A DNA stretch of 63,798 nt from Rhynchobatus australiae. Its lineage: Eukaryota. The notes beneath the pieces were generated by a model. The model did not search any database, had not been told where the DNA came from, and was given only the letters and a program-made list of their open reading frames with translations. How positions within the stretch are numbered: position 1 is the first letter of the stretch; each line of letters starts with the position of its first letter. The position numbers and the translations under genes are program-made. Shown here in pieces: positions 20,801 to 47,524 of this stretch. The stretch is taken from positions 39,713,432 through 39,777,229 of the forward strand of contig JAUZTB010000027.1 of assembly GCA_034780895.1 (NCBI GenBank), in the 5' to 3' direction.

Positions 20801-22930
20801 TCAGTCATTAGCATGACAAAATGAATTACATTGCAGTAACTTTAAATTGTGTATCCAACCTCCTTCCTGCTTGCCAGCAGAAAATCATTTCATAAATTAA
20901 AAAAAATTAATTTGGTTTAATTTAAGTGATCCAAATACTAGTCTTAACACGAATAGAATTTTAATGGATGTGCCAGGTATTTATTCAATTACATCTATGT
21001 TTTTATTCATGAAGTTAACATACAACATTTGAGACAGCAAATTTTAAAATTAGCTATTTGACACTGGAGATCTGGGTTAGCTTGGCTGAGTGGTTGGAAT
21101 GCCATTCAAAGCTCGTCTGTATCTGATTGCTTAGTGAAGCTTTTCAAAGAATGGACTGAATTGAATTGACTTGGAGAATGCAGGCCACAATGTTGCTACA
21201 GGATTTACTGCATTTTATTTTTTTTGGTATACATCCATACAAGGTTTCAATTAGTACTTTGTATGGAACTTTTTTTTTTATTGATGTCAGATCAAGGATT
21301 GTGATTGTGGTGTCAAATGCAGTGAGAGCCACTTAATGTTGANNNNNNNNNNNNNNNNNNNNNNNNNNNNNNNNNNNNNNNNNNNNNNNNNNNNNNNNNN
21401 NNNNNNNNNNNNNNNNNNNNNNNNNNNNNNNNNNNNNNNNNNNNNNNNNNNNNNNNNNNNNNNNNNNNNNNNNNNNNNNNNNNNNNNNNNNNNNNNNNNN
21501 NNNNNNNNNNNNNNNNNNNNNNNNNNNNNNNNNNNNNNNNNNNNNNNNNNNNNNNNNNNNNNNNNNAAACTAAGTTATTGATGTGAACAGCTTAAATCAA
21601 AAGCTAAAATTGGGTCCGATTAATATGCCACCTTAATGGAATAATTCAGTTAACTAACATCAAATGAATGACAATGTTATAATATTTTTTTACTTGTATT
21701 AGTAGTTCAAATGGTATGTAAAACTGATCTCTGGTTTTGATTTAAAGCAACAAGTCTTTTTAAGAACCTTTTAACTTGTAAGCTACTTGCTTCCTGAACT
21801 TTGCTCTATTTTGATTGTAGTTTTTGACCCCTCAGATACTTTGTATATAAGCAATATTTTAATTGACCACGTGATTCCTAAATGGCTATTTTAATCTTTA
21901 ACAAGCCAAATGTAAGTGTTTCCGAGCAATCCTTAATCACCATATAAATTGTATATTTAACCTGATTTTTGTATTCAATGTGGCAGGCTATTGCTTTGAT
22001 TAGGAAATTGGACACTGGCAATACCGCCTGAATTGATTCACTTTTGTTTTTGTGCTTGTTCCACTTTGCATTGTGATCTTTTTGCAGGTTGGCTATCTAA
22101 TTTGCTGTGGAACATTTGATCTTCTTTAATTTGCAGTCAAACAAGTGGGTCAGACCAGTGGGCTGCATTTCANNNNNNNNNNNNNNNNNNNNNNNNNNNN
22201 NNNNNNNNNNNNNNNNNNNNNNNNNNNNNNNNNNNNNNNNNNNNNNNNNNNNNNNNNNNNNNNNNNNNNNNNNNNNNNNNNNNNNNNNNNNNNNNNNNNN
22301 NNNNNNNNNNNNNNNNNNNNNNNNNNNNNNNNNNNNNNNNNNNNNNNNNNNNNNNNNNNNNNNNNNNNNNNNNNNNNNNNNNNNNNNNNNNNNNNNNNNN
22401 NNNNNNNNNNNNNNNNNNNNNNNNNNNNNNNNNNNNNNNNNNNNNNNNNNNNNNNNNNNNNNNNNNNNNNNNNNNNNNNNNNNNNNNNNNNNNNNNNNNN
22501 NNNNNNNNNNNNNNNNNNNNNNNNNNNNNNNNNNNNNNNNNNNNNNNNNNNNNNNNNNNNNNNNNNNNNTCCCAAAAACTGGGAGTTATCGAACTGCAGC
22601 TGAAACTGAATGTCCTTTCCAATAATCTTGCGAAGGACAGCATGTAGATAAGAGGTAAAGGGCGGGGGGGCATATTTAGATCCTTGGGAGATCCCAGAGT
22701 TTGTGATGTGGGAGTGAGAAGAAAAGCCATTGCTGAGTTACTGGCTCCAAATGGATAGATAGTAAAGGAATTATGTGCATGTGATCCCATTCGGTTGGAA
22801 AGAAATGGAGAGAATTTGGAGGAGGGTGGCATGGTTCATTGTCTTGAAAGCTTTAGACAGGTGGAGAAAGATAAACTAAGGATCCTGGTCCTAAGAATGC
22901 CTGAATATCTTTCAAAATATTTACTCCCTC

Positions 22931-22999
22931 CTTCCTCTTCTGAAGACACAGAAGGCCTCCAGACCTGTTGGAGGCCTTCTGTATCTTCAGGAGAGGAAG
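22931..22999. repeat. Near-perfect 69-nt inverted repeat (hairpin)
   Basis: 31-bp arms at 22931-22961 and 22969-22999, 2 differences, 7-nt loop gacctgt. Confidence 0.9.
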
Positions 23000-23134
23000 T
23001 TTGTGTTGTCTCAACTTGGCAGGCTATTTTGCTGTGGAGTACATCTTAGTTGGTTACCTTTCCGTGAGCAACAACAAACATGCACTTCTTGGCTATCAAA
23101 GGATAGAAAGTAGGATTAGAAAGCCCTTTTGAGA

Positions 23135-23215
23135 CGCTGCCCCCAGAATATTGTACGCAAAAGATGTACTTCACTGTGTTTCGATGTACATGTAACTAAT
23201 AAAGATATGTTTAAA
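23135..23215 (+). mobile_element. 3' stub of the V-SINE family
   Basis: gctgcccccagaa...tacgcaaaagatg...actaataaagatat matches the tail of 30116-30412. Confidence 0.8.
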
Positions 23216-24119
23216 AAAAGTCTTATCTTTTGCCTCCTTAAGGTGAGTGTATATAATGTATTTCTTCAAATTTGTTTGACGACTGGCAGTAACTTTACCG
23301 AACGTGTCCCATAGTGGGCAACATCCAGAATTAATGATTGCAAAACACTAGTTTGGGATTAATTCCCGTGCCACATGCAGCAGCACTTTCACTCAGTCAT
23401 GTTTGAAGACAAAAGTCTTCCAGGTAAGTTATTGGTGTCATTATTTGGGCTCTGCATGCCATCACTTCCCTGACATGTGGCTGGCATTTGAAATATGTAG
23501 TTTATGGGTGAGAAAATGTGGTTGAATTTCCTTGCCTTTTCTCTAAGGAACAGCTAGCATTTTAAGAAAAACTGTCTCAGAGATTATTCATTTATTCATT
23601 CCCAGCATCATTTGTTACATTAGTGGACCTGTAATCAGGAATTTCTTCTAAGACTTATCTTCTCATCTAGTTTCTCTAGTGTTACTTCATACACTTTCAT
23701 ACATTTGAGTATTCTTTTAAGAACCTTAGTTATCTCAGTTCTTGATCAAAATAACATTACAGTCATTATATTCAATTTATGCAACGGCCACTCTGTATAA
23801 TATACTACTTTTGCATGGCCTAACCTATCAGGAGTCCTAAAAATATGGTAGTTGATCCAGATAGCATATATGACCATTGAAGTAGAGATTTGAAGGAGTG
23901 AACAAAGTAGATTTGGGTAGATTTCATCCAAAGGGCAGAGGAAAGCTGAAAGTAGGCAGTGTTTCAAAGGTGAAAATAAATAATCTTGTTGAGAAATATG
24001 AAGCTTAATTCTGATTATGTGAACAATCAACAAGAGGAATTTAGTCCTGTTTATTATTTAGTTGGAAGGATAAATGATATTAAGTAAGTATTATTCTGTA
24101 TTATAATGGCTGTGGAGAT

Positions 24120-24345
24120 TCTGGTTATGTAAGCTGTAGTGGTTACCTGATATCCTAGGTCTGGATATAAGAGTTTAAATCCATCACAGCAACTGGGGAA
24201 TTTAATTCCAAAAAATAAATAAACCTGAAATAAAAAGCTAATGTCTGCAATAGTAACCTTGAAACTATTGGATTATTGTGAAAAGTCAACTAATTCACTA
24301 ATATTCTTCGGGGAAGGAAAGCTGCTGTCCTTACCCAATCTGTCA
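24120..24345 (+). mobile_element. Old tRNA-type SINE remnant
   Basis: gagtttaaatccatcacagcaactggggaattt...ttcactaatattcttcggggaaggaaagctgctgtccttacc. Confidence 0.5.
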
Positions 24346-24347
24346 CA

Positions 24348-24845
24348 TGGAGACACAAGAGTCTGCACATCTGGAGCAAAAAACAACCTGTTGGAGGACC
24401 TCGGTCAGTTGAGCAGGATCTGTGAAGTAGAAAGGAATTGTTGACATTTTGGGTCAAGACCCTGCATCAGGACTGAGAGTGGAGAGGGAAGATAGCCGGT
24501 ATAATGAGGAGAGGGGGAAGGGTGAGACAGGGCAAATAGGTGCTAGGTGGACCAAGGAGGGTGAAGGATGATAGGGAGAAGGAGCCGGGAGGGGGAGGGA
24601 TGGCATTGGGAGATAGGGGCAGGTGGTTGATAGGGGGAAGCAGACAAGGGGGGATAAAGGCAGATGGAACCAGGTGGGTGTAGGGGAATGTGAAGATGGA
24701 CACAGAGGGTGATAAGCAGGGACATAAGGGCTATAATCTAGAATCTGATAAGTAAGAAAGGTGATAATGGGAACCATTAAGGGAGAGGTGAAAGGCAGAT
24801 GGAACCAGCTGTGGGAGAGGATACGGTGGGTGACGTGTGTGGGCA
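24348..24845 (-). mobile_element. Penelope-like terminal repeat with purine-rich tract and decayed hammerhead motif
   Basis: Minus strand 24474-24440 reads AGTC-CTGATGC-AGGGTCTTGACCC-AAAATGTC-AAC. Confidence 0.7.
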
Positions 24846-24945
24846 NNNNNNNNNNNNNNNNNNNNNNNNNNNNNNNNNNNNNNNNNNNNNNNNNNNNNNN
24901 NNNNNNNNNNNNNNNNNNNNNNNNNNNNNNNNNNNNNNNNNNNNN

Positions 24946-26670
24946 TGGAATGTCACTACCCACACCGACAGCCTCCAATGCACCTGAACCCACAGTCACC
25001 GTTGCAGATGTAAGTTCAGTCTTCCGGAGAGTGAAAGCACCTGGCCCAGATGGTGTCCCTGGCCATGTCCTTAGATCCTGTGCAGATCAACTGGCAGGTG
25101 TATTTGCAGACATTTTTAACCTCTCCCTGCTTCAATCTGAGATTCTCACCTGCTTTAAGAAGACCACTATCAAGCCAGTACCTAAGAAAGACAAGATAAA
25201 TGCCTTAATGACTACTGCCCAGTGGCTCTGACATCCACCATCATTGAAGTGCTTTGAGAGGGGTCATGGCACGCATTAACTCCAGCCTCCCAGACAACCT
25301 CCATCCACTGCAATTCACATAGCATCCACCTTAGAACCGTTTTGGCTGTATCTCCCTGGCCCTACACTCATCTATGGAGCATCTGGACAGTAAAGACTCT
25401 TGTTTATTAACTACAGCTCCATCTTCAGTACTATAATTCCAAGCAAACTCATCACCAAACTCTGAGACCTAGGACTCAACTTTGCAACTGGATCCTTGAC
25501 TTCCTGACCAACAGACTGCAATCAGTGAGGATAGGCAGCAACACCTCTGTCATGATTATTCTCAACACTGGTGCCTACAAGGCTGCGTCATCGGCTCCCT
25601 ACTCTACTCCCTATACACTCAGGACTGCGTGGCCAGATTTGGGCTCTAACTCCATCTATAAATTTGCAGATGATACCACTATAGTAGGCTGTAATTCCAA
25701 TAACAATGAATCGGAGTACAGGAAGAGGATAGAAAGCTTAGTGACATGGTGTCATGATAACAACCTTTCCCTCAATGTCAGCAAAACAAAAGAGCTTGTC
25801 ATTGACTTCAGGAAAGGGGGCAGTGTACATGCACCTGTTTATATCAATGGTGCTGAGGTCAAGAGGGTTGAGAGCTTCAAGTTCCTCAGCGGACACCATC
25901 AGTAGCCTATCCTGGTCCAACCATGTAGACACCACAGTGAAGAAAGCTGACCAGCACCTCTACTTCCTCAGGAGGCTAAAGAAATTTGGCACGTCTCTTT
26001 TGACACTCACCAACTTTTAATCGATGCACCACAGAAAGCATNNNNNNNNNNNNNNNNNNNNNNNNNNNNNNNNNNNNNNNNNNNNNNNNNNNNNNNNNNN
26101 NNNNNNNNNNNNNNNNNNNNNNNNNNNNNNNNNNNNNNNNNCAGAAAGCATGCTATCTGGATGCATCACGGCTTGGTATGGCAACTGCTCTGCCTGTGAC
26201 TACAAGAAACTGCAGAGAGTTGTGGACACCGTCCAACACATCGCAGAAACCAGCCTCCCTTCCGTGGACTCTCTATACTTCTTGCTGCCTCAGTAATGCA
26301 GCCAGCATAATCAAAGACCCCACCCATCCCAGACATTCTGTCTTCTTCCATTGGGCAGAAGATACAAAAGCCTGAAAACACATCATCAGGCTCAAGGACA
26401 GCTTCTTTCATGCTGTTATGAGAATATTGAATGGTTCTCTAGTACAATAAGATGAATTCTTGACCTCACAATCTACCTCTTTATGACCTTTCTCCTTATT
26501 GTCTACCTGCAATGCGCTTTCTCTGCAGGTGTTGCGCTTTATTCTGCATTCTGTTATTGTTTCACCCAGTACTTAATGCACTGTGTAATGAATTGATCTG
26601 TATGAATGGTACGCAGACATTTTCTGCTGTACCTTGGTACATGTGACGACAATAAACCAATTCCAATTTA
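24946..26670 (+). mobile_element. Rex1/Babar-like LINE, RT plus 3' UTR, frameshifted
   Basis: KAPGPDGVPG..LRSCADQLAGVFADIFNLSL, IYKFADDTTIVG, LSLNVSKTKELVIDFRK, KKLQRVV; tail aataaaccaattccaatt. Confidence 0.92.
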
Positions 26671-28204
26671 ATATCTAATGTTATTAATATCCAAGTTAGC
26701 TGACTGATACCATCACAAAAGTTATGATTAGTGTCATGTGTGAGTAAATGAGGAATGGTAACATTGAAAATATACATTTTTATCCAACTTTACACCCCAT
26801 CTATTCCATTTATGCTACTGACATTTTTAAAGACACTTAATAGACTGAGTCTCCTCGGTGTAGGTAGTGCAGCATGGTCACTAACCAATCCTGACAGAGT
26901 TCTGAACCTTTCGTCATGGACTTGAATCAAGATAACTGCACAGTCCAACAATAATTCAGATAATCAAACCCTGTGATTTTTTTTCTCAAAAATACAAATT
27001 GCCAGTAGTAAAGTTTTTGACAACTTAACAAGGTATTTAAACTTAGGCTTCTCATACCATTGTAATCACTGTGTGAACTAGGCTTTCAAGTTAACCAATG
27101 ATCTGTCTTTCAGCAGTGTGCTTGCAATTTGCAATCCTATATGCAAAACAACCATGCTCCGTACTGCAAAAAAAACTGGTCCCCTTTCCTCCTCCAAATA
27201 CACCTTCTAAACCTGTGTATAGCAATACAAATTCTGCTTCATTTTGATATGTTCATATATAGCTATGGGATGTATTACATTTTTGGGACAATCTATTAAT
27301 CGTGTGATCCTGTTCATAACTGTGTAACTACCAAATGGTCCTTTTGACCCATTAATCATAGGTTTATTACTCCTTTTTATGCTTAAAATGGGACTAACTT
27401 TCATGTCCTTGTGTATGTACTCTTTACAGTTGAATAAATTTCTTTTGTTTGTTCCTGTGAGAATTTCCCAAAATCAGCCAGATGTGTCTCCCTCATTTCT
27501 AGAAGAAAAAACAGTTTTGGCCAAAATGGTGACAGCTTCAGCAATTCTTTAGTTCAGTTTAAAATCTTGTTGGTTTCACAGAGTTATCTGGAAATTTGAT
27601 CAGTTTGTGGAAAACCAGTTTTTAGGTGCATCTTGCATTCCAGCAGTCTGGGGATCTTGGGCTCACAACTCATTACAGTATGTGTTGAGTGAAGGTGTTT
27701 ATGGTTATAGTGGTATTATATCAAATTGTAATGGTTTTTTTTGCTGTAAGACCTTCTTGCTACATCTGTGAATCTACTGCATATGATGCACCAAGCATTG
27801 AATTAACACCTATTTGCAGATTGGTTAATCAGTTTGCCACAGTTCGGATAAGTTATCACTGCTTTCTCCCGAGAAAGAAAATACCATGCCAGGAGACAAA
27901 TGCATGTCATCCAAGTTCCTACATGGGATGATCAATTAAATGACATTACAATTTACCAATATGTAACTGAAGTTAAATATTAAGGAACTACAGTCACAGT
28001 ATACAATCACTACAGCATAGCTACTGAGTAACACTACACTGGTAGTGTAACTGAGGAATTGATTGAGCATCAGCACATATTTGAAGTAAGAAAAGCAGAA
28101 TTAGTATGTAATTGAAATATCCTTTTGAGAGCTCAGTTCTCAGATGTACTGATATGTACAAAAGGCTTTATCTTGACACAACTTTCAGATATAACATTTC
28201 AAAT

Positions 28205-28885
28205 TCACACTGATATGGTGATCAAGAAAGTGCATCAGCATGTTTACTTGGGTGTCTGAGAATATTCGGCATGTCCACGAAGATTCTCTTGAACTTTTAC
28301 AGATGTGCTATGGAAGGTATCCTGATGGGTTCATCTCAGCCTGATGTGGCAACTACTCTGTTCTGGGCCAACGGAACCTGCCGAGAGCAGTAACCATAGC
28401 CCAGTCCATCATAGGCTCATCACTTCCTTCCATCCAATCCACCTTCATGGTGTGTTGCTTCAGGAAGGCTAAGAATATCATCGAGGATGCCTGCCACCCT
28501 GGTCATTCTCTTTTCTCTCTTCTACCTTCTGGGAGAAGATACAGGAGCTTGAAAGCCCCTTCATCCAGACTTCAGCTCCTTCCCCTCTGCGATCAGACTT
28601 CTGAACCAATCACCTCTTTTGCATCCCCTTCCCAGTGGTGCTGCCACATCCTCATACACTTAATTCTACCCCTCTAAGTTATTCTGTTATTGTCACTTTA
28701 GCGTTTCTTTTCTTTTGCACTACTTTAGATTGCACTACAATCTTTACACCATTCTGCTGTTTTGAGGTCATCGTATTTATTGTTTTAATTATTATTACCA
28801 TTTATACTGTGTAGTCTGTGAGCTTCACGTGAACAAGGAATTTCATTGTACACTGGTGTATGTGGCAAACTAGTCTGAATCTGAA
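28205..28885 (+). mobile_element. Rex1/Babar-like LINE 3' fragment, second subfamily
   Basis: KAKNIIEDACHPGHSLFSLLPSGRRYRSL; ctgaatctgaa tail. Confidence 0.85.
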
Positions 28886-29302
28886 ATAGATAATGTGAAA
28901 CTGCTTTCAGCCACTAATTTTGCATTTCATGTTAAAAATGAATCTCCAGGAGAATTCCTCACTATTCAGTTGATTGGAATTTTCCAGATAGGCCAAGTTA
29001 TGAAAACATTGTTAGCTAAGCGGTGTGTAATGGCTGGCACAGAAGAATGAGAACAGGGGAGTTCTCTTCACTATATTGTAGAATTTTTTTACTTCTGTTT
29101 GAGGGCTGGTTTAATGTCTCTTTTTGTGGCAAGAATCTCTGATAATGCAGCCTTCTCTTCCTGTGAAGTGTTCAGGTACTCAAGGCACATGAAGTGGTCT
29201 TGNNNNNNNNNNNNNNNNNNNNNNNNNNNNNNNNNNNNNNNNNNNNNNNNNNNNNNNNNNNNNNNNNNNNNNNNNNNNNNNNNNNNNNNNNNNNNNNNNN
29301 NN

Positions 29303-29855
29303 TCATGTTGCAACTGCACAAGACACTGATAAGCCCACACTTGGGAGTATTGTGAATAGTACTGGTTGCCCAGACGGAGGAAGGATGTCAATAAGCTGGA
29401 AATGGTACAGAAAAGGTTCACAAGGATGTTACCAGGACTGGAGGGCTTGAATCATAAGGAGAGGCTGGATGACTGGGACATTTTTTTCTTGGCACGTAGG
29501 AGACCAAAGGGTGACAAAATCAGGAGGGGCATAAACTAGGTGGATGGTCACAGTCTTTTTCCCAGGGTAGGGGAGTCTAAAATGAGAGGACATAGATTTA
29601 AGTTGAAGGAGAAGGGATTTAAAAGAGGGGAAAAATTTAAAAGGGACCCAAGGGAAAACTTTTTTTTACACAGAGGGTGGTGGGTAAATGGAACGACCTG
29701 CCAGAGGTAGGTACAATTACAATATTTAAAAGCCACTTAAATAAGTACATGGATAGAAAAGGTTTAGAGGGGTATGAGCCAAATGCAGGTAAATGGAACT
29801 AGCTTGGATAGACATCTTGGTTGGCATGGACGAGTTGGGCCAAAGGGCTTGTTTC
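29303..29855 (+). mobile_element. CR1 (HER1-like) LINE 3' end
   Basis: ggagtattgtg...aggttcacaaggatgttaccaggactggaggg...ggcatggacgagttgggccaaagggcttgtttcc. Confidence 0.88.
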
Positions 29856-30115
29856 CTTTCTCACACACTGTGGTGCACCAAGACAAGCACATTCCTTAGA
29901 GACCTCACAAGACCTCTGCCCTTATTCCAGGAGGAAGTCACGTACTGGGAAGCTGCTCGTGGATTGGATGAAGAGCAGTAAAAGGAATCTTAATTCATTA
30001 ACAATGCATGGAAAGGAATGGCATCATGGTGTGGTGGGTCACAATAAAGGAAGACAACTTGGAGATATCTAACGCAGCTGAAAAATCAGATGCTGGTGAG
30101 GGAATGTGAAGGGCA

Positions 30116-30412
30116 GGCATGCTACTGCAGCGGTTAGCGTAATGCTTTACAGCGCCAGCGACTCGGGTTCAATTCTGGCCGCTGTCTGTAAGAAGTTTGT
30201 ATGTTCTCCCCGTGTCTGCGTGGGTTTCCTCTGGGTGTTCCGGTTTCCTCCCACGTTCCGAAGACGTACGGGTTAGGAAGTTGTGGACATACTATGTTGG
30301 TGTCGGAAGCGTGGTGACACTTGCAGGCTGCCCCCAGAACACCCTACGCAAAAGATGCATTTCACTGTGTGTTCCGATGTGCATGTGACTAATAAAGATA
30401 TTTTATATCTTA
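30116..30412 (+). mobile_element. Full-length tRNA-derived V-SINE (HE1-like)
   Basis: A/B-box-like gcagcggttagcg and gggttcaattc; V-domain gttctccccgtgtctgcgtgggtttcctc; tail gactaataaagatat. Confidence 0.88.
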
Positions 30413-30493
30413 TGTGCAGGAGGAGTGAGCTGGGGGGAATCAGCCAGACTTCAGGTACACAGTTACAGCTAACCTTACATTAGAACCAAGCCC

Positions 30494-30572
30494 TGGAGAA
30501 GAATAGAGAAACAAAGGACTGCAGATACTGGAATCCAGATGAAAATCTAGATGAATCTAGATGGAGAAGAAT
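30494..30572 (-). mobile_element. 57-bp Penelope-family terminal stub with 11-bp TSD
   Basis: tggagaagaat at 30494-30504 and 30562-30572 flank agagaaacaaaggactgcagatactggaatc, the same end as the element at about 31105. Confidence 0.8.
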
Positions 30573-31204
30573 GGTGCAGAGAGCTGATGCATAGCTCACC
30601 CACAAGACACAGTATAAACTCAATTATGCATCCATTATGCATTTACTTGATTTCTTGTTTACTGTAAGAATGCTCCTAAATTCTGCAAAACTGATAGAAA
30701 CTGGAATTTCCTACATTGCTTTCCTTGCAAGAGGGCTTAGCTGCCCACGGGGTCGACAAATGTTGCACGACAGATTCTAGATGGGAGTAGAAGGAGGGAA
30801 ACAAAATGCAGCAATAGAGCACTGAGAGCTTTGGCATTCTGAGCAGTGCTGTAGAGGTGGCTGGTTAAGGGGCAGTACATATTCAAACAGTGGGGTAGAA
30901 ATTAGCATACGTGGAGTGGAGGAAAGAGCAGATACATTCCCTGCAGTTGAGTGGCGAGTCACACAATCTAACAGAGTTGAGGCGACACAAAGAGCCAACA
31001 GGGTTGAGGAAATGGTCCGCGATTACCAGCCTTCAGGCAAGTGAGGTCAGCATTATGAGGTGAGAGGAGAGCAGTCTGGATGAACTTGGGGACCAGGTGA
31101 TTTCAGAGAAACAAAGGACTGCAGACGCTGGAATCTGGATGAAAAACACAATGATGCTGGAGGAACTCAGCAGGCCAGGCAGCACCCATGGAGAAAAGCA
31201 GAGT

Positions 31205-31239
31205 GTCAACGTTTTGGGTCAGGACCCTTCTTCAGGACC
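31205..31239 (-). ncRNA. Minimal type I hammerhead ribozyme motif, GAAA box mutated to AAAA
   Basis: Minus strand GGTC-CTGAAGA-A-GGG-TCCTGA-CCC-AAAA-CGTT-GAC; GTC/GAC stem I intact. Confidence 0.55.
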
Positions 31240-31362
31240 TGAGGAAGGGTATTACTGCTCCACTGTGAAGTCTCTTTAAGGATGCCCACTTAGAAGTTTT
31301 CTTCCTCTCTTCAACGGGAGCTTTGTGACTCCCTCTCTTACCGCTCCACTTCTGTAACCTCC

Positions 31363-31399
31363 ATTCCTGAAGAAGGGTCCTGACCCGAAATGTTAACCG
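31363..31399 (+). ncRNA. Minimal type I hammerhead ribozyme motif, partly decayed
   Basis: CTGAAGA(31367)-A-GGG-TCCTGA-CCC-GAAA(31387)-TGTT-AACC. Confidence 0.6.
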
Positions 31400-32399
31400 C
31401 CTGCTTTTCTCCACGGATGCTGCCTGGCCTGCTGAGTTCCTCCAGCATCATCGTGCTTTTCAGGTGATTTCAGAGGCTGGAGTAGTGGGAGTAGCATCCA
31501 TCCAAGACCGGGGTACCAGCGGCTACACATTCAGGCCAATCTTACACTTAACCTTTTGGTTGCAGTTCAAGATTGGGTTCTACTGAGCGTAACTGGTGAT
31601 GGCCGCAGACCAACTGAATGGAAAACCATTCATACATTCATGGGGGCTTCAAAAAGACTTTACTAGCAAGTGCAGATAATCAAACACCTTTTTCAGGCCT
31701 GGTTCCTGACACCAATGGCTCTCCTTCCCCAATAAGCTAGGCAGCCCATTCTGACTAGAAGTTTATAAATGTTTCCTGTTTGCCACATCAGGGCAGAGTA
31801 ATCACAGCTGTTCTTGCAGGACAAAAGGACTGAATATTAAGACATAAAATTCTGAACAGTGCATCAGGAAAGGCTGATCAGTTGATTAATCAATTGCTTT
31901 AAGTGCTGATCAATGCCACGGAGCAGTAAATTATATGGGGCCACAGGACTGGTCAAATATATTGTATGTTTGGGTAATCAGCCAAATTAATCACTACAAT
32001 TGAATTCCATGATCATACTCTATATGGCTAAGAATCAAAATTATCCATTAACTCCTGTTGATGGCCACAATATCTGTCATCTGTTTATCTTGGGCCCACA
32101 ACATTGCTTCCAAACTGCCAACACTGCAAAGACTTAGAACAAGAAATGTGCTGTGAGCAGATTACAGATACTACTAACACAGAATGCCTTTATGAAATGA
32201 CTCCTGTTACTTTAACATTGATGTGAAAGCAAAGTGAGAGATACCATTACTCTGATCAAAGGATGAGTACTTACATTTAATTCTCAGGGATAAATAGACA
32301 TCTAAATAATCAGCCTGTCTGATTTACTTGTTAAATCTAACCGAAATTAGCATATCATCATGAGAAAATGAGGAGTTCCATTTAGACAACTTTCACCAC

Positions 32400-32640
32400 C
32401 TCAATTTGTTCTAATGCACTTTACAGTTCATGGAATATTTTTTGAGAATAGTTTTAATTTTGGAATGCACAGTATAATTTACACACAACAAGAGGCAAGA
32501 AACAGAAAAGAGATAATGGTCAGACAATCTCTTTTTAAGTGCTGGGCAAAAGATATGTATTGACAAGCACACCAAGGAGAATTTCTCTTCTTCAAAATAG
32601 GATCAAGGAATCTTTTACATCCACCTGAGAGGATGAAGCT
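32400..32640 (-). mobile_element. Deu-domain SINE remnant
   Basis: gagataatggtcagacaatct...caccaaggagaa...tcttttacatccacctgagagg. Confidence 0.65.
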
Positions 32641-32799
32641 GCACAGAAAAAAGATCCAAATTAGAAAATCTCAAAAGCCAGCTGTCAGAATAAACAAGGG
32701 GTTGAACAGACCCTTTGCCATTGTAATTCAGTTCACTGGATAACTATTTACACACCTATCATATTTGGTGTTGCTGCAGAGAATGGAGCAGATAACTTG

Positions 32800-33060
32800 G
32801 GCTAACATGTCAGTGCAGTGCTGAGAATGATTGTATAAGCCCCCATCTGGTTTCTGAGGCAGTATATTGATTATTAAAGCACAATTCAGAGTGGAGGAAT
32901 GGAGTAACCTTAATAAAGATTATTTGTAATGCATCTTACAAATAATCTTGCTGTTTGTAGCATCTTTATGTGAATTAACTTCATAATAATGACTGCATTT
33001 CAGAAGCGCTTCATTTGTCTTGAAAGTGCTTTGGTATGTCCCTTTTGGGTGGGTATTATG
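32800..33060 (+). mobile_element. Deu-domain SINE remnant, opposite orientation to 32400-32640
   Basis: tcagtgcagtgctgag...ttgctgtttgtagcatct...gactgcatttcagaagcgcttcatt...aaagtgctttgg. Confidence 0.55.
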
Positions 33061-35559
33061 TGAGTTCTTCCATCTCAATACAGTGCATGGGCAAAGTAAG
33101 ATTCCATAGTTTAAAAAATGATTTGCAAATTCATACGAATAGTTTTCAAAATGCAGAAATGTAACAACTTTGATATTAATATACTGTTATACAGTATTAT
33201 CAATTTGGTGTTTGAAGCATGGCAGTTGTATAGTTAGCAGTGAGATAATTCACTGTTAGGTAGGCAACCTGATTCTTCAGCACTCTGAAGTCAGGAATAC
33301 CTTGTACGTTTTGGACATCACACAATCTGCAGTTTAACTGTGGCTCTCTGCAGAGGCAAGCTTGCAGTGTTCTGAAGCTTTGCATTTTCAACAGATGTTC
33401 TCCAGCTTGTTCTCCATATATCAAAATTTAAGTTGCCGTTAGGCAGCATTTACTGCATGAATGCCGAACTTGAGGGAACTTAAGCATCCACCGCAGATCT
33501 GTGTGCTGTATTGGAGATCCTCTCTGAAAGGGGAAACTAAAATTTCCTATTTTGTAGAAAGTCTTTGATCAAACGTGAACGTATCATTGAGCACTTCATT
33601 GAGGGATATGTTTGGGTGTTAATAATAAAGCTGTTGTTAAGGGTTTGCATGGAAATTGATCAATATTTGTCTGAGAAGTTTTTTAAAAAACTGATGTTCT
33701 TTCTGGTAATAGTTTATCAAAAGACAAAGCACAAGATTGGAAATAAAACTGCACACACTTTCTGTGATTTATTGATGCAAATGACCGTAAGAGTAACTAA
33801 GTTTCTCTTTGTTTTCCTGACTTCTTAGTCTGCACTAACTTGCTTTTTCACCCTTTCATTTGTGTAGCCAATCTTCACTGAATTATTTCATACTGATCCT
33901 AGATGGCAGACAATACAAATGAAATTAATTATATCAAGTGTTGGTTATATTAGAGTTCACTAAATCAACATTCTACTGCTGTAGAAAGCATAACAGGCAA
34001 TGTTGATCCAGCAAGATTCCACAAAAAGTTTATGATTTAGTCTCTCCTTAGTATAAAGCAAGTATAAAACTCAATCCAAAATTGAGTTTTGGATTGTTCA
34101 GGATGCAGGAAAGATCCCTGCTTCTGTTTACTTGTGCCAAGGAAGACAGGGTGACTGTATATGCCTCTTACTAGGAGAAACTGAGCAAAAAGTACATCTC
34201 TAATTACAAGTGCACCTTAAAATTCACATTAGTTGATGGTAACTGAGATCTTAATTTTGTTAAATAAATGGGAGTAATTTTGTTTTAAAATGCCCTATCT
34301 TGATGTACATTACCACTTTATAATTGTAGTTGATCTTGAAAACCAAAATGACGGTTTCCATTCTTGCTTTAATATATTTCTTGTCTTCTTAAAATTTGCA
34401 ATTGCAATGCTCAAAATAGTGCACTAAAAATAAATGTTATTGGTTACTGTTTTGTGCTCTAATTTTGGAATTATTGAATCGTGCAACAATAGCTACAGTA
34501 TTGGAACTTGGAGAAGAGGTAAAACATCCACTTTACACTGAGCAAAAATGAGAGTGCAGTCATGCACATTCTTCGGTTATTTTGTTTTTCTATAAAATCT
34601 TCACGTGACTGATAATGGGATAAAGCTGGTAACTAAGTGAATTATGAAAAGCTGAAATTGTAACAATTCACAGTTAAATCATTGGTGCAGGAATCAATGT
34701 AGATACACTTCCTGTAGTGCATTTGGAAGAAGTAAGTGATGATCATTTATTGAAGATGTAAAGTTCCTGCTGTGTACCTATTTTTATTGTCAATACCAAT
34801 GGGCAAGTGTATTTTGCTTGTAACTCTGGTTAATTGATCCCAACTTTTAATATCCCCCCTCAATCTTGTGCAATTGTCCTGAAGAACTCTTGCACCTTGT
34901 GAATAATAGTTTCTGCTGGACCTCATCATTTGGTATAAACATCATGTATTTTTAATTTCCAGCAGCCAGTGGCTGCCTTAAGGTTAGATGAGCATTTGAC
35001 TAAATGTCTAGGGAATTGAAAGACTTACACCTCCAACGTGGCTGTGGTGTGCTTTTATACAATTTTTAAAAAATGTGAAGGCATACACCCAGAGAAAGTA
35101 TTGTAAATGCAGATTTGGTGTGATTGAAGCCAATAAACATTGGTACCTTTTGTGTTCTTTCTTTTTCCCTTGTATGTAATGTATGCAGACANNNNNNNNN
35201 NAAATACAAATCCATTTATCAATCCCAGTGACTTTATCAAGCCACCATCCTGAGTGTTGGTAGTTTGCAATATTCTGTATTGGAGAAGTCAGTCTTTGGA
35301 TGACTAAAGCAAAACAAAAATTCAATATACCACCAGGTTTTGTCCAACAATGGTTGAATTGGTGCATAATGGCTGTGAAACAAACTGTTCACATTTTTCT
35401 AAGCCTTTTGTTAGGTCTTCTCCAGAACTCCATCTTAAAGTGCACTCAATAATTTGTCTTTTGTTTTCCTTTGTGCACCTCTCAATTTTTCAGTAGGTGG
35501 GTTGATGAGGTGAGGCCATTTTGAATGGAGAAGCCAGTAACAACTAATGATGAGTTAGT

Positions 35560-36330
35560 AAGCCACATATTGAGGTTTTCTGGAGAGATGATGGGTGATG
35601 TTGTAAGCACAGCAGAGGAAACATTAAATTGCAAAAAGCTTTTAACAATTTAAGTGAATGGACAAAACCACACCAAATGGATTTCAAATGCATAAATGTG
35701 TGATCATCCATTTAGGCCTAACAGGGCTGGAACAGAGTACTTGCTAAATGGTGAAAAGCTGAAAGTACTGGATGCCCAAGGATCATTGTGCCTTGGATAA
35801 GTGCAGAAACTAATGAAGAAGGTCATGGATATGTGTCTACATTTAAAGGATTAAAATAATAGCAGGTCTCCAATATGCCTGCCTTTGACAAAACATGCAT
35901 TATTATAGATGTTTCTGACCACTCCACATTTGGAAGACTAGGTTGGCCTTGGCCCAGATGCCATGTAGATTTATCAGAATCTATCATCTCCAAGCATTAC
36001 TATGTACCGAACTATTTACAGAAACTGTTTGTATTCATACGAATTTAAAGGGTGATTTGACTGAGGTTTCCACGATTAAAGGGGAACTGATTCTATTTCT
36101 ACTGATGGAGAAGTTCAGGATTGGGAGACATTGGCTAATTAGAGCTGGACAATGCAGGAGTGAAGATGGGCAATTATTAATTTTAAATCCTGAAGCTAAT
36201 AGTTTTTTGTTAATCATAGGGATGAAGGCATGTAAGGGAAACGTGATGACATTGTCACAGATCAGACAGTACTTACTGAATAACAGAATAACTTGAAGGG
36301 CTAAATGATTTACTCCTTTTCCTATGATTC
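35560..36330 (+). mobile_element. Old CR1 LINE 3' fragment
   Basis: aagtgaatggacaaaacc...ataaatgtgtgatcatccatttagg...tactccttttcctat tail. Confidence 0.6.
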
Positions 36331-38762
36331 ATTGCTGTGAGATCTGGACTGTAACTGCAGCTTGCTACATTTGGCATCGGCTTGGCTTTGGAACTGGCAA
36401 GGAATAGATCTCAAATACCTATGCATAAATTAGTTAATCTAATATCCACTTTAAAGGCAAGATACCATTTTCACAGAATAATAGGCAACTCCCAGAATAC
36501 CTTTTGACATGAATTGAATTTGTCTTGTTTGCTGTTAGTCATTGGTTTTGATGCATCCTTTACATGATGTATAAATCTCTGTTGTTACAAAAATAAAGTG
36601 CTGGTTCTCAGCAGACTAATTGATTTTGCTCATGCACCACATTGTAGGTGCTCTGTGAGGAACATATGTTCAGGGGCACAAATAGAATTCTGGAAGTTGG
36701 TCTCATCAGCAGCATAGCACTGAGTTTGAAGTCCAATTCCCCAGTTTTGGCAGTAACATTCCAAAAGCAGTATTTTCAGTGCTCTCACAATGTATGAACT
36801 CTATTGCTATGACAACCCAAGAGAGTCTAACTTTGGGCTGATGATCTCCAGATACTGTGGCGAAGAGTGTCTCTCTCTCTCTCTCTCACACAAAAGGTAT
36901 AGAAGTAAACAGCCTCATTTTAAAATGGACCTTACCAGGAATTATTCATTAAAAGCACTTGTACTGGGGGGAAAAAATTGCATAAATATTAATTATGCTG
37001 TGTTTTTTTTTATCCTGAATTCAGTGAGCCTCTGGTTTAATATTGCTTTACAAGTCTGTATCATTACATGAAGACAGTCAAACCAAGCCAATTTGATACT
37101 ACTAAATTTCTCAGCACCGAAGGATCACTGCATTTAAGAGTTAATGGGATCTCAATAATTAGATTCCTGAGAGTAAGGAGGATGTTTATTCAAATTTTCT
37201 TGTGTTGCAATGTTATTTATAGCACAGTTTCCAGTAAATTGGGTTGAGCATTTGGACATAACCTGTATGTGAAAATTGCAGTGTCCTCCCACAACACTAA
37301 TAACTATCCTTTCAACATTTAACAAGGTTTTTACATGTGCTGTACAGCTTTTAAAAGTAAACAAGCTGTAACTGACCAACGAGTAATCAGAGGCACAGTT
37401 GGATGCAATTTTGGAATAGCTTAATGGTACTATTTTTACTGTTTATTCCACTGAGATTGGGCAAACTAACTCTTTCCTGTGGTGATGAATCTGTTACACA
37501 TCAACATTCTTCCTCAGCTTGATTGAACATTCCTTAAAATGTGGATCTTTTTGTTTCTAGCAGCATTACCTTAAGCTCTCTCGGTTACCATGCTGTGCAC
37601 AATTCTTTAATCAACCCATTGAGGACTTGATCTATTTTCAAACTTGTCCTGTAATATTTCAAAAATGTATACTAAGTTTAAATCCATGGGGATATAGGTT
37701 TATTGACAAGACAACATGCCTACTCTTTGCATGTTGAGTCTTTAAGCTCATGATACATCAGTTACATTTGAGAAGCAGGCACACCACATTACTCTGCTAC
37801 CCAATACAATTTCAATATAAAAACAGGGATACAAGGAAAATGGTATGAGGCCATTTCAGTTCCCAATGTGTCTATACATTGCTTGGATTCCATCCATCTT
37901 TTCCATGACCCACAATTGAAAATTAATGAATTGTTATGTGAAGATATTTGACTGCAGTTACTGTAAAGTCCTCATCAACTGCATTTAGCATGAAGTTCCC
38001 GTTTCACTTTCAGTATTCGAGTCCAATTGGTAGTCATGGCAGAGCATCTGCAATGCCATTCTGCCTGGAACTCCTCTACCCAATTGTATTAATAAGGTGT
38101 GATTTTGGAATTCTTTACCTAGAGGGCATTGGGGTCTCAGTCATTGGTTATATTAAAACAAATTAATGGATTTCTGGATTTTGAAGGAATCAAAGAATAT
38201 GGTGATAGGACAGCAAACTACTGCTTATGGCAACCAGGATCTTGTTGAATGGTGGCGCAGGCTTGAAAAACCGAATGGCCTACTCTCCCTATTTATTCAT
38301 ATTCCTTTGCATGCCTTTACTCTCAGTATAACCGCTCAGGGCTGTCCGTTGGCCTTCCCTATTCAACATTTAATGTGGTTAAGCTTGATGTGTGATAGTC
38401 TGGTGACACCAGTGCATCCATCCCTCCACATTGAGGCTTGCTGGTCATTTGACCCTGGCGCACCTCTGAATAATGTGCAGCCTGATGCAGAGACAACCTG
38501 CCAAACTCCAGTTGGGAGCTAAAGGGATAGGCTTGCCAAAGATTGCCAAGTAGACGGCAGATCGGGCAATCTGATCCAGTGTCCTGAAGCTGTCATGTTA
38601 TTTGAGGAGTAGGCAGATCACATGACCCTCCTCTGTCATGGTATAAATGTACACCTAGATTTGCAGAAAGTAGCATGTTCCACAATTAGAAGCATTGCAG
38701 AACAAACCCTGCATCTCAGCTTGTTTCAAATGAAGAAAAGAAATACCCTGTTACCTTTCAAA

Positions 38763-39255
38763 GAATCACAGAGCAATACAGGATGGAAACAGGCCCTTTG
38801 ACCTAACTTGTCTGTGCTGATCATGATGCTCAGCTGACCTACTCCCATTTGCCTGTGTTTGACCCATATTCCTCTGAACCTTTCCTATCAATGTCCCTGT
38901 CCCAGTGTCCTTTAAATGCTGTTAATGTACCTGCCTCAATCACTTCCTCTGGCAGTTCGTTCCGTATGTCCACCACATTCTGTATGAAGAATTTGCCCCA
39001 CAGGTCCCTTTTTAAATCTTTCCCCTTTCAACTTAAATCTATGCCCTCTAGTTTTTGATTCCCTTTCCCTGGGGTAAAAGACTGTGTGCATTGACCCCAT
39101 CTATGCCCCTCATGATTCAAAACACGTAACCTACCCAACCTGTCCCTCAGTCCCTCGAGTACTAGCATACTAGCAACATTCTCATAAATCTTCTTTGCAC
39201 TTTCCAGATTAGTTGTATCTTTCCTATAACAGGATAACTAAAACTGTACACAATA
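38763..39255 (-). mobile_element. CR1 (HER1-like) LINE 3' end
   Basis: Reverse-complement relative of 29303-29855 (ggaaacaggcccttt...acttaaatctatgccctctagtt). Confidence 0.85.
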
Positions 39256-39456
39256 CCAATGCATACAATGTTCTAAATGCACTCCTTAAGAAATGAATAC
39301 TCTTTCCATACGTCAGTAGTGTGGTATGTAACATCATGAGCATAAGCAAAATTAGGTACATATAAACTAATTTTCATTGAAATATGACTTTCACAACTCA
39401 ACAAGTTCTTCACAGGCAATTAAATCTAATTTCTATTTTAATGTAAAGTGGTTTAG

Positions 39457-39636
39457 GGGTTAGCGCGATGCTATTACAGCGCCAGCGATCAGGGTTCAAT
39501 TCCTGCCGCTGTCTGTAAGGAGTTTGTACGTTCTCCCGTGTCTGTGTGAGTTTCCTCCAGGTGCTCCAGTTTCCTCCCACGTTCCAAAGACGTACGGGTA
39601 AGTTAACGTGGGTTTAAGAATGGGCGGTGCAGACTC
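39457..39636 (+). mobile_element. V-SINE, 3'-truncated
   Basis: ggttagcgcgatgctattacagcgccagcgatcagggttcaattcc...gggcggtgcagactcg. Confidence 0.85.
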
Positions 39637-40090
39637 GATCTTGTCAGCCAACAAACGTATTTCATTATTAGTTCGTTTTTTCAATCCAGCAGAATATGAA
39701 ATAATTTGACCACGAATATATGCTTTAAAAGTATCCCATATTATCCCACTGGAAATTTCTTCAGTGAAATTAGCAAAAAAGAAAAATGAAATTTGTTCTC
39801 TAATAAATTGGACAAAATCTGAGTCTTGTAATAGAGAAGGGTTAAATTGCCATTGTCTGACATCAAAGGATACGTCTGGTAACAATTGATAAAATCAATG
39901 GTGCATGATCAGAAATGGCAATTGCATCGTATTTACAGTCCGTAGTAAGTGGAGCTAATCTAGCATCAGTAAGAAAATAATTAATCCTTGAGTAATTATG
40001 ATAAACATGAGAGAAGAATGAAAATTCTTTATTGTATGGATGTAAAAATCTCCAAACATCTAAAATTCCGAATTCAACTAAAAAGGAATT
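39637..40090 (-). mobile_element. L1-clade ORF2 endonuclease/linker fragment
   Basis: DVWRFLHPYNKEFSFFSHVYHNYSRINYFL...ISDHAPL; WQFNPSLL...WDTFKAYIRGQIISYS. Confidence 0.88.
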
Positions 40091-40790
40091 GAAATCTTTA
40101 CAAAAGTCCGTGTATACAACATCCACTCCCCTGCCTTCCTCAATCATCTTTGTCGCCTTCCTCAATCATCTTTGTCACCTCCTCAATAAACTCAATCAGG
40201 TTTTTAAGACATGATCTCTCCTGCACAAAGCCATGATGACTATCCCTAATAAGTCTATGTTTTTCCAGAAGCGAGTGGATCCTATCCCTAAGGATCTTCT
40301 TCAATTATTTCCCTACCACTTATGTAAGGCTTACCAGCCAATAATTTCCTGGTTGTCTCTGTGGCCCTACTTAAACAGAGGAACAACAGTGGCTATTCTC
40401 ATTCTCTGGGACCTTGCCTGTGACTAAAGAGGATACAAAAGATCTCTGTCGAGGCCTTAGCAATCTCTTCCCCTGCCTCTCTTAATAACCTGGGATAGAT
40501 CCCTTCAGGCACTGTGGAGTTATCCACTTTAATGTTCTCCAACACCACCTCCTCCTTGATATCCATATGACGTGGAATATTAGCATACCGCTCCATGAAC
40601 TCGCTGTCCCCCATGTCCTTTGCCTTAGTCAATACCAATGCAAAGTATTTGTTTAGCACATCACCCATTTTCTCTATAATCAGGGATAAATTTCCTCCTT
40701 TTTCACTGAGTGGTCCTACCCTCTGTCTAGTGACCCTTTTGTTTTTACTATATGTATAAATTGCCTTTGGATTCTCTTTAATCCTGCTCA
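40091..40790 (-). mobile_element. CR1 ORF2 internal fragment
   Basis: IKENPKAIYTY...LNKYFALV...GIYPRLLREA; GRGVDVVYTDFCK. Confidence 0.88.
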
Positions 40791-41906
40791 CCCTTCTAAG
40801 AACTCCTGCTTTGATCCCATTGGGGACTGCTCAGATTGCATGGAAAGGTCAGGAGTTGGACAGTCAGCAGTTACATGGTTGAAACCTAATGGTTGGCTTA
40901 TGGGACACCACAATGTTACCGGTCCATAGTTTCAGGTGTTCTTGCACTAGGGAAAGTATCATCCCTAAGATAACCCATTTTGCCTTTATTTTCTGCCCTG
41001 AAGTAATTTCTTTTCCCGTGGTTTTAGTCTAGATTTTAATCTCGAAGTGTCACAATGTTGATTTAGATTTTGGGTAAAAAAGACAACCTAGTTGGTAGGG
41101 AAGGTCCAATGAGCAGAGTATATTGAATCCAAGGAGAATATCCATCATTTAAAAAAATACAAGAATAGATTACACACTTCTTATGTGCGTTATGATTATG
41201 GTTTGACCAGCAATCCAGAAGTCTTCACTTCAAATCCTGCCATGTGAAGATGCAAAATGTTAAATTGGGACATGATAACAGTAAATGAATAGTCAACAGT
41301 TAAGGAGTCTGTTGGCCAGTCTACTTTGGTGCAGGTGACTTTTAACATGGAACAGTTCCTACCTATTTGAGAACATGGGATTTAAATGTGTGGCAGGATT
41401 AAAGAGACTAATTTGGATTGTGAGAGATGGTACTAAATGTTGGTAAATGGCTGACTGGGATAAAATTAGGCTGTGAATTTCTGTGATTAGAAATAAAAAT
41501 CATTAAAGGGCCCTGAGAGTAGATTGCTGGCCCCAAAGAGTAATCCAGTGACCTTGCAGTACAAATTGAATAGAATTTAGAAAAGAACATCGAAATTACT
41601 TGCATTTTAATGATATTGCCATTAACATAGGATACTTTGAAAATCAATGGTGATCTAATTCCAATTTATTAAAAGGATAGTAGTCCACATAGTTAGGAAT
41701 GGAAAATAATGCCTGTCATTGCCAAAAATAGATCAAACAAGTAGCACTAAATTATTTCACAAAACACACACAAGGTATTTATAAAAATGTAATAACTGTT
41801 TGCATTNNNNNNNNNNNNNNNNNNNNNNNNNNNNNNNNNNNNNNNNNNNNNNNNNNNNNNNNNNNNNNNNNNNNNNNNNNNNNNNNNNNNNNNNNNNNNN
41901 NNNNNN

Positions 41907-42075
41907 GAGGGATTAAATCGCCTTTGTCTGACATCAGAGGATACACCTGGTAATTTAATTGGTAAAATCAATGGAGCATGATCAGAAATGGCAATTGCAT
42001 CATATATACAGTCCGTAGGACGATGCAAACTTGTTGGGCCAGAAAGGCCTGTTACCACGCTGTAAATAAAATTAG
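41907..42075. mobile_element. Second copy of the L1 segment joined to a V-SINE-type 3' tail
   Basis: 41907-42017 parallels 39836-39943 (DAIAISDHAPLIL); then gttgggccagaaaggcctgttaccacgctgtaaataaaatt. Confidence 0.75.
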
Positions 42076-45000: not shown

Positions 45001-45862
45001 TTACCACTTAAATTTAACTTGTGGTAATGAAGATACCATAAGTTGATTTGCAGTAACTTAAATTACTATTAAATACTGATGTATGCAGAACTCGATACGA
45101 AATTATATATTTTTTCTTTTGAAAGAAACTGGTTCTTGCATCAATATCTCTTTGCACCCTTTTGTGTTATTTCCACTTTCAGACTCTTGATTAACATTTT
45201 CTAGTTCTTCCTTTCAAAAAAGTAGATGACTTTCGTCCAAGATAGAGGGAGATCGTTAAACGATATGGGCCCAGGCAGCTATGTGTACACAGTAATGCAT
45301 GTTTATTTTGCATACTCCTGAAGAAATGGTTAAATTTGTGATCCTGGCCCACCACTGCTTTGATAGTTTTTGTGATAAGCAATTAGACTTGTTTCAGAAT
45401 TATGCAGTAATGTCCTTTTATAGAGTAAAAAAAAAATCATCTTGTTGAAAATTTGGAACACAAAATTTTCTCATTGTCCATGAGTTGCAGTCTACCTACC
45501 CCATTCAGTGATGTCTGGGGATTTAAACTCTTGATAATAGTTAACAGCAACTTGTTTCCTTTGTACGTGCCTGACATATGTTTCAAGGCTAGAATATTTG
45601 ATGCAACTTCCTTAAATAATGTTCACNNNNNNNNNNNNNNNNNNNNNNNNNNNNNNNNNNNNNNNNNNNNNNNNNNNNNNNNNNNNNNNNNNNNNNNNNN
45701 NNNNNNNNNNNNNNNNNNNNNNNNNNCTTAAATAATGTTCACATGTAACTTACAAAAAAGTACTCAATAAATTTAAATTCATAAGAAGTTACAAGACAAT
45801 TTGATTAATTGGAAAAGGACTAACTGGGCACTGCCATTAACGTTTTCTTTGTTCCATTGCAG

Positions 45863-46660: not shown

Positions 46661-47524
46661 AGGGAACAGAACCTAATCAGTTTCAGCTTGACCCCGGCTC
46701 TAACTGCAAACCTACCCAGGTTCCTGACCCCTGTGGCTCATGGCTCTAGCTGCTCACCCACTCACAGTGCTAATAAAACACAGCCAATCTCACAAGTATG
46801 CATATCCATGGAAGGTAGGTCTATGGATAATGAGGACTTGCTAACTAATAAGTGAGCCAGATGTCGCACTAAGCATTCAGTCACTAGATTATTGGAGGTT
46901 TTTGTGTATTGGATCCGGAGGCCTATCTGTTTATTATGTTGTTGCATGTGAGGAGCCCCTTCTCTTCCTTTGTGGTATGCTATTGTGGGTACACCAAATT
47001 GGAGTAGTTCTCAGAATGTTAGAACACCACATGAAAAATTACCTGTCACTTCGGATTAAAAAAAAATATTTTTCCTGCAAGGCTTATCAAAATGTCTACT
47101 CTATGAAGTAGACCATAACCAGAAACCTTTCATTGTCAGGCTTGAACATTTTTCTTGGCTGCTCTGTGAACATTGGACTTAATTTAAACCAAAAAATAAC
47201 TTCAGATGCATGTGTTGATGCCGAATGTGTGAAGAGATTGCTAGCTCATCTGGGAACACCTATGTTTTATGCATAAGCAATGTAGTAAATGTACATGTAT
47301 CTCGGTATGATAAATTGTTTTTTTGTTTATCTGTATATTTATTTTCAATGCAGTCCTGGGTATAGAAAAACAAGAATGTATTTTTTGTATACGGTGGTAA
47401 AAAAAATTATGTTCATATAAAATAATTTGTGAATAAGTGAGCTCACTGGGGTTGTCTGTTTATTGGTTTTAATTTTCTTTTGATGAACACTAGAAGATTG
47501 CTGTGTTTTTATCATTTCATTCAG

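Follow-up and report, generated by a model that had tools for sequence, protein, structure and literature searches.

The insert at 31094-31475 is most probably a single old insertion of an EN+ Penelope-like element (PLE), 5'-truncated and internally deleted, in which an inverted copy of the element's end with its tail stands head to head with a direct copy and the hammerheads are predicted to be inactive. The hairpin formed by the two copies is most likely an ordinary one: it follows a published PLE pattern, and both ribozyme motifs are predicted to be dead. The evidence consists of the layout, the far greater abundance of the arms than of the spacer, the variable head-to-head joints, the apparent sharing of the insert with diverged organisms, and the lesions in the hammerhead cores and stems. 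The Penelope-like origin proposed in the first-pass annotation is supported by the EN+ PLE traits observed here, namely the minimal type I hammerhead form, an inverted head-to-head copy of the end with a palindrome at the junction, a 35-nt tail at one end only and a target-site duplication (TSD). A 5'-inverted truncation of a Penelope family, which that annotation had named as the case speaking against its own reading, fits best.

Layout of the insert

The insert is bounded by the direct repeat CAGGTGATTTCAGAG, which was found at both ends with 100% identity and 352 bp apart by a repeat search of the window (the whole stretch of 63,798 nt analysed here), so that the exact 15-bp repeats reported earlier are confirmed. 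The inverted arms, given before as 97 bp, were borne out with a length of 98 nt each and identity at 88 of 98 positions. The + strand of the element folds with -210.7 kcal/mol (z -16.8), and 0 of 100 shuffles fold as well. Eight of the 10 differences between the arms are transitions and 4 are CpG-type by direct context; the description of the decay as mostly CpG-type was therefore overstated. The main copy of the element contains no ORF.

The two outer ends are unequal, since the left one carries the tail and the right one lacks it. The TSD overlaps the element by 4 nt (AGAG) on the left and by 2 nt (CA) on the right, and the duplicated target is therefore 9-15 bp long; it is not AT-rich. On the + strand the direct half consists of a stub, then the spacer, then the arm, and the 12-nt stub joins the spacer with a 2-nt GT microhomology. 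Both arms share the same first base (TCCTGAAG), and the stub starts one base later. The start of all three hammerhead segments falls directly behind a splice-acceptor-like CAG, as read in another copy in the window (24.4 kb) and in the majority of the loose ends of two sequencing runs, X4 and X14 (see below).

Table 1. Features of the insert and its surroundings (positions in the window)
Feature	Position	Strand	Remarks
Left TSD	31094..31108	+	final 4 nt (AGAG) shared with the tail's end; other copies start at 31105
Tail of inverted copy	31105..31139	-	35 nt, not present at right end
Inverted copy of PLE end module (pLTR 3' part)	31140..31237	-	begins TCCTGAAG
Minimal type I hammerhead, left	31208..31235	-	stem I of 3 bp; A for G12 at 31215 through CpG decay; predicted inactive
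Head-to-head junction palindrome, 27 nt	31224..31250	.	right half 31238-31249 is the 12-nt direct hammerhead-start stub
Spacer	31249..31364	+	lower-copy repeat; likely PLE sequence after tail
Direct PLE end module without tail	31365..31462	+	begins TCCTGAAG; last 2 nt (CA) overlap right TSD
Minimal type I hammerhead, right	31367..31394	+	intact core (CUGAAGA/GAAA), with stem I unpaired and decay of the palindrome at 31391; predicted inactive
Right TSD	31461..31475	+	exact repeat of left 15-mer
Relaxed hammerhead pattern, first match	31211-31235	-	in left arm
Relaxed hammerhead pattern, second match	31367-31391	+	in right arm, opposite strand to the first
Relaxed hammerhead pattern, third match	52851-52876	+	
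Host intron, FAM192A/PSME3IP1-type gene	14760..45862	+	~31 kb if without a further exon inside

According to the available text of the two main sources, PLE insertions have an inverted pLTR, an optional 31-bp tail, TSDs of 8-10 bp, palindromes at head-to-head junctions and microhomology deletions (PMC3846280), and the tail of 30-40 bp is present at one end only (PMC8557442, PMC3846280). The insert shares with complex EN+ PLE insertions such as Pen2a_Av the head-to-head inverted end copy and the junction palindrome (PMC3846280; PMC8557442), as well as the one-ended tail of 30-40 bp, the short TSD and the microhomology at an internal joint. It differs from insertions of the Pen2a_Av type in that the ORF is gone, only 352 bp are left and the first direct copy is reduced to a 12-nt stub, and its TSD of up to 15 bp exceeds the 8-10 bp reported for the rotifer cases (PMC3846280). 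With Poseidon of Anolis carolinensis (PAc), as far as it is described in the accessible part of PMC11167929, the insert has in common that its ends differ by the tail, as two start sites of reverse transcription give, and that the cut site of the hammerhead is not where copies end. However, PAc prefers ATT targets and needs no homology in vitro, whereas the target here is not AT-rich and short matches are present at both ends.

The layout has been in print since at least 2013, and opposed pairs of minimal hammerheads and an intronic expansion of PLEs in a shark are likewise known. In the literature searched, most subscription titles aside, no paper was found on elasmobranch PLE hammerheads or on the arm family, which is not evidence of novelty.

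Decayed hammerhead motifs

A relaxed hammerhead pattern has three matches in the window, compared with 0.04 expected, and 0 of 100 shuffles reach three. Two of the matches lie in the arms (Table 1), in agreement with the first-pass annotation of two opposed motifs, one per strand, and the minimal type I form that it had recognized is present in both arms, in a decayed state. The minimal hammerhead (min-HHR) of metazoan PLEs is of type I and lacks helix III (PMC4209133). Judged by the sections of that paper at hand, the motifs share with it the CUGANGA sequence, the extra nucleotide before stem II, the G10.1-C11.1 pair, GAAA, the palindromic positions 15.2-16.2 and the absence of helix III, but both copies here are damaged, and stem II here has 4 bp. 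The same sections describe pairs of min-HHR in S. mansoni that are opposed and 100-700 bp apart, like the pair here, and characterize the context of such pairs as 'probably related to truncated PLEs'; elasmobranchs are not among the groups that they name for the min-HHR (PMC4209133).

An active hammerhead has a core with G12, which acts as the general base (PMC6155905), and a paired stem I, a combination found in neither motif. The left one has an A at position 12, a stem I of 3 bp and a stem II of 4 bp. In the right one the core is intact, the palindrome has decayed, and 1 of the first 4 pairs of stem I is possible. Both hammerheads are thus predicted to be inactive. According to the folding prediction, the pair probability of stem II is 0.0 in the whole element on both strands and ~0.39 for the + motif alone. 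Because the motifs folded in isolation do not exceed shuffles in stability (4 of 4 tests, z -1.3 to 0.6), the folding energy gives them no support, and no hammerhead model scored in an Rfam scan. The sole Rfam match, SNORD115, was rejected (E 3.5; score 17 bits, cut-off 39).

In most other copies the sequence is GAAACGTCGAC, an intact form of the min-HHR. After GAAAC, most of them have GTCGAC instead of GTTGAC, as read from the loose ends at 31409 in all 4 runs (agreement ~0.6). The stem I of GGTC and GACC that had been reconstructed by combining the two arms is a chimera, its GG being derived from the inner palindrome and the other copies mostly having GTCGAC. The idea that ribozyme cleavage set the ends of the segments was rejected, as no segment stops at hammerhead position 17. 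Nor would the opposed motifs be able to dimerise in cis, because they never share one RNA as ribozymes. A scan for the arm motif gave 0 matches in metagenome contigs and 0 in viral contigs; four matches in prokaryotes, only 20-22 nt long, were taken as chance.

Copies of the element in public sequencing runs

Contigs of 4 out of 15 public sequencing runs (X1, X4, X8 and X14, from organisms A, C, E and F) were aligned at 80% likeness; X1 is possibly the same sample as the window. Taken as orders of magnitude only, since summed contig depth is not copy number, the depth of the left arm relative to the flank is 8.0e4 in X1, 1.7e5 in X4 and 1.1e5 in X8, the three runs covering the flank, and that of the spacer is 128, 448 and 216, respectively. 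The ratio of left arm to spacer is 631, 375, 506 and 1,488 in the four runs, the contigs of X14 not covering the flanks. Among the 15 of 574 joints listed, 10 run from arm to arm and use 6 left and 7 right positions; several of the listed joints have sides of less than 30 letters or unknown letters between the sides, and the breaks at 31238 and 31365 are partly the ends of the reference's own homology. No empty-site joint occurs among these 15 of 574.

Upstream of the hammerhead, the spacer is replaced by a different pyrimidine tract, with CAG at its end, in 228 contigs of X4 and 65 of X14. On the other side, all 4 runs have copies starting at 31105 (82-244 contigs per run), and the loose ends before this position finish in ACT in all four (agreement 0.35-0.36), matching the first bases of the spacer. 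On this sequence evidence, an intact PLE probably continues from its tail into the spacer. Contigs with the spacer only were found in X14 (two) and X8 (one), extending from 31248/31249 to 31346-31355, and one contig of X4 crosses from spacer to arm (31345-31449, with 20 differences), although with only 20 nt on the spacer side it is too short to serve as a bridge. Considering that the spacer is repeated 128-448 times and that this X4 contig lies across the spacer and the arm, a small subfamily sharing the full layout may exist.

The spacer has no second copy in the 64-kb window. Read as the start of an ORF, it gave 0 of 2 candidates in a word-index search, and no match at E ≤ 0.05 was obtained against 63 retrieved proteins. 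When 4 long PLE-type proteins were compared with the element, the best E value was 0.039, on the other strand, and nothing was convincing. In X4, X8 and X14, copies of the spacer (2-3 contigs each) have a 3-nt insertion at 31291, after the ATG at 31282; this insertion would keep a frame, for which no protein match was found.

Flank contigs diverged by 5.4-5.8% run into the element, by 35 nt on the left and 28 nt on the right in X4, and those of X8 enter it by 6 nt on the left and 26 nt on the right; of these four crossings of the orthologous junctions, one is long enough for the 31-letter rule. From these contigs, X4 and X8 appear to hold the orthologous insert, which would be older than the split of ~5.5%, its arms being 10% apart.

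Insertion mechanism and the nature of the template

For the truncated PLE insertion, the following course can be proposed. The GIY-YIG endonuclease of the parent element would have nicked both strands of the target 9-15 bp apart, and each nick would have served to prime reverse transcription at one of the two internal start sites on either side of the tail, the left copy starting at the tail's end and the right copy at the tail's start, with the 4-nt and 2-nt matches to the target helping the priming. For both cDNAs, synthesis would have come to a halt at the hammerhead's 5' edge. The product running rightward may then have switched template into the post-tail sequence and back to the hammerhead start through the 2-nt GT match, after which the two products would have been joined and the copy would have decayed. 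Two start sites of reverse transcription bracketing the tail, as well as cleavage and extension of both strands, are reported in the available text of PMC11167929, according to which hammerhead cleavage is not needed in vitro. Because the same text reports that no homology was needed at priming, the microhomologies at these positions may be chance. Junction palindromes have also been read as self-priming on an antisense template (PMC3846280), and the locus does not decide between the two readings.

As it stands, the insert matters little, being one decayed copy of a repeat end that is very abundant. It is of use as evidence on how PLEs insert, a mechanism not yet settled: the whole difference between the two outer ends is the tail, which is what two internal start sites, as seen in vitro, would lead one to expect, and each of the three inner ends lies on the 5' edge of the hammerhead and not at the cut site. 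[quoted passage not shown]

A different template is conceivable, though unlikely. The insert would still be of PLE origin, but its direct half would have been copied from a spliced or back-spliced circular transcript with an acceptor just 5' of the hammerhead, the junction of stub and spacer being perhaps a second splice junction. This would agree with the common first base of both arms (TCCTGAAG), the stub being one base on, and with the position of that base after a CAG-ending pyrimidine tract in the 24.4-kb copy and in the majority of the loose ends of X4 and X14. In Drosophila virilis, moreover, the PLE intron extends up to the 5' end of helix I, as stated in the consulted part of PMC4209133, and the ACT ends before 31105 (4 of 4 runs, agreement 0.35-0.36) would put a TAG ahead of the spacer's TATT. 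However, the stub-spacer junction has one G too many for a GT-AG splice and is explained by the 2-nt GT microhomology, the alignments of other copies end at 31346-31355 and not at 31364, with no donor seen, and splicing does not account for the inverted arm stopping there too, which an RNA 5' end or a stop of reverse transcriptase does explain. To the extended version we give a similarly low probability: elasmobranch PLEs would make a short spliced or back-spliced non-coding RNA composed of arm, tail and post-tail sequence and closed at an acceptor on the hammerhead's 5' edge, this would have been retrotransposed by proteins of the parent as a mini-element of at most a few hundred copies, and the locus would be a permuted copy of more than unit length. 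If this were true, splicing and not ribozyme cleavage would set the ends of the template, and a spliced template would link PLE introns, hammerheads and the origin of retrozymes.

Comparison with retrozymes

The first-pass annotation had proposed a non-autonomous, retrozyme-like family, that is, a mini-element spreading as a fold-back unit by means of PLE proteins. We regard this as improbable. It is true that the TSD bounds the whole unit, that the spacer is repeated, that PLE proteins are able to move inter-pLTR sequences in trans according to the available text of PMC3846280, and that a Chondrichthyes genome is listed with retrozymes of a mean length of 363 bp in the accessible portion of a preprint (bioRxiv 10.64898/2026.07.22.740005). 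Nevertheless, the arm lies hundreds-fold above the spacer in depth (375-1,488), the joints of the arms are variable, most copies carry other sequence upstream of the hammerhead, and the spacer is single in the 64-kb window. There is no head-to-tail tandem array, the opposed motifs are not two ribozymes on one RNA, and both are damaged.

The metazoan non-LTR retrozymes, as described in the parts of the sources available (PMC7229834; bioRxiv 10.64898/2026.07.22.740005), are likewise non-coding, ~350 bp long and PLE-derived and have a type I hammerhead. They form head-to-tail tandems with an intact hammerhead per unit, all on one strand, whereas the insert is a single head-to-head copy with dead motifs; head-to-tail units with a complete type I hammerhead, by which they are recognized, were not found in it. 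An assignment to the plant-type LTR retrozymes, which have direct LTRs, type III hammerheads and a 4-bp TSD, was rejected, the arms here being inverted, the hammerheads of type I and the TSD 9-15 bp long.

Host intron and remaining alternatives

The placement of the insert in a PSME3IP1-type pre-mRNA, as annotated before, was corroborated. Pfam domain PF10187 (FAM192A_Fyv6_N) matches 2 of 3 exon pieces tested, both on the + strand (14636-14758 and 47521-47640), and a GT donor (14760) and an AG acceptor (before 45863) flank the insert at distances of ~16 kb and ~14 kb. PSME3IP1 is another name of FAM192A. In the host pre-mRNA, the decayed copy, which is probably inert, would form a long hairpin; the mean pair probability of the arms on the + strand is predicted to be 0.90, and the longest unbroken helix of the predicted duplex is 34 bp. 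The earlier suggestion that the fold-back would sequester the + motif is consistent with the predicted pairing of stem II (0.0 in the element, ~0.39 alone), but the point is moot, because the + motif has already lost stem I.

Retention of the hairpin for a regulatory effect on the host pre-mRNA, by editing, splicing or cleavage, is very improbable, in spite of the stable + duplex predicted and of an insertion apparently common to diverged organisms. Of the 10 differences between the arms, 8 break the pairing on the + strand and 2 keep it as G-U, the 10% divergence of the arms is the neutral expectation for an insert older than the 5.5% split, and the splice sites are 14-16 kb away. An intronic expansion of PLEs is also known in a shark, with ~30% of the PLE sequence of the whale shark located within introns, according to the accessible text of 10.1101/443036.

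A MITE or fold-back DNA transposon is less probable still. The insert is short and non-coding, with inverted arms and a TSD, but the left arm is not terminal, having 31-35 nt outside it; solo copies of arm and tail occur in either orientation elsewhere in the window, and the hammerhead content and the tail are PLE traits. A pair of inverted repeats that form both termini and move together, which characterizes a fold-back DNA transposon, was not found. ARAGORN detected 0 tRNA genes in 30400-32000, a search that a decayed SINE head would escape. A chimeric fold-back created by the assembly can practically be dismissed: the whole stretch is unspanned by any listed contig, but the arms differ at 10 of 98 sites, the TSD is exact, and the unique flanks enter the element in X1, X4 and X8.

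Other PLE relics and repeats in the window

Five further PLE relics are present in the window, at 17.7, 24.4, 30.5, 49.0 and 52.8 kb. At 30505-30561 there is a tail-only insert of 57 bp with an 11-bp TSD of its own and the same start boundary as the main element; the insertion as a whole (30494-30572) consists of the PLE tail and a short GAATCTAGAT repeat between the 11-bp direct repeats. An older fold-back lies at ~49.0 kb (48985-49145; score 63, reached by 0 of 1000 shuffles). In it, ends of a related PLE stand head to head; the left side carries tail-like sequence, the junction lies inside the arm, and there is no clear TSD. The relic at 52800-52975 (+) is a hammerhead arm with tail whose core CTGATGA/GAAA is intact; a short inverted piece in front of it is weak, as 2 of 1000 shuffles reach it and one other search missed it. 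At 24358-24845 (-), a hammerhead arm of another subfamily follows a long pyrimidine-rich stretch ending in CAG and is cut by an assembly gap.

The relic at 16786-17810 (+) begins with a GIY-YIG frame that is broken near 17033 by a repeat (17033-17515) recurring in inverted orientation at 26.2-26.7 kb; this inserted repeat is followed by pyrimidine-rich sequence and, at 17726, by a decayed hammerhead arm. The frame (16786-17034) has 63 relatives at E ≤ 0.001 (HMMER); Pfam (0 of 2 readings) and the word index (0 of 2 candidates) gave nothing for it. RVT_1 together with GIY-YIG was found in 4 of 10 relatives scanned, most GIY-YIG scores being below the Pfam cut-off, and 12 of 18 looked up are from whale shark, stingray, skate or sevengill shark. 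The best named relatives are proteins of whale shark, stingray and skate, which bears out the cartilaginous-fish context suggested at first.

The arm at 17.7 kb is 71% identical to the main arm over 55 nt only. In a whale shark gene model (P0062), a reverse-read arm is joined to a GIY-YIG fragment (weak match, tblastn E 0.004-0.014). DNA of a full-length parent was not seen. Through these two cases the arm subfamily would be linked, indirectly, to an ORF of the RT-GIY-YIG kind, although an arm as abundant as this could be joined by chance in P0062.

Three other gene models from rays and sharks (P0004, P0010 and P0014) combine the GIY-YIG fragment of a PLE with unrelated sequence. Their names are those of host genes (mucin-2, receptor-transporting protein 3-like), but they are probably mis-predicted or exonised repeats. 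Broken frames resembling the RT of LINEs are present at 24752-26375 (+), where 25453-25797 weakly matches an RVT_1 protein by tblastn (E 0.005-0.01). A dispersed repeat of ~290 bp, with copies 82-88% identical, occurs at 30115-30407, 39454-39602, 53896-54188 and 23136-23219, one of them 700 bp to the left of the element.
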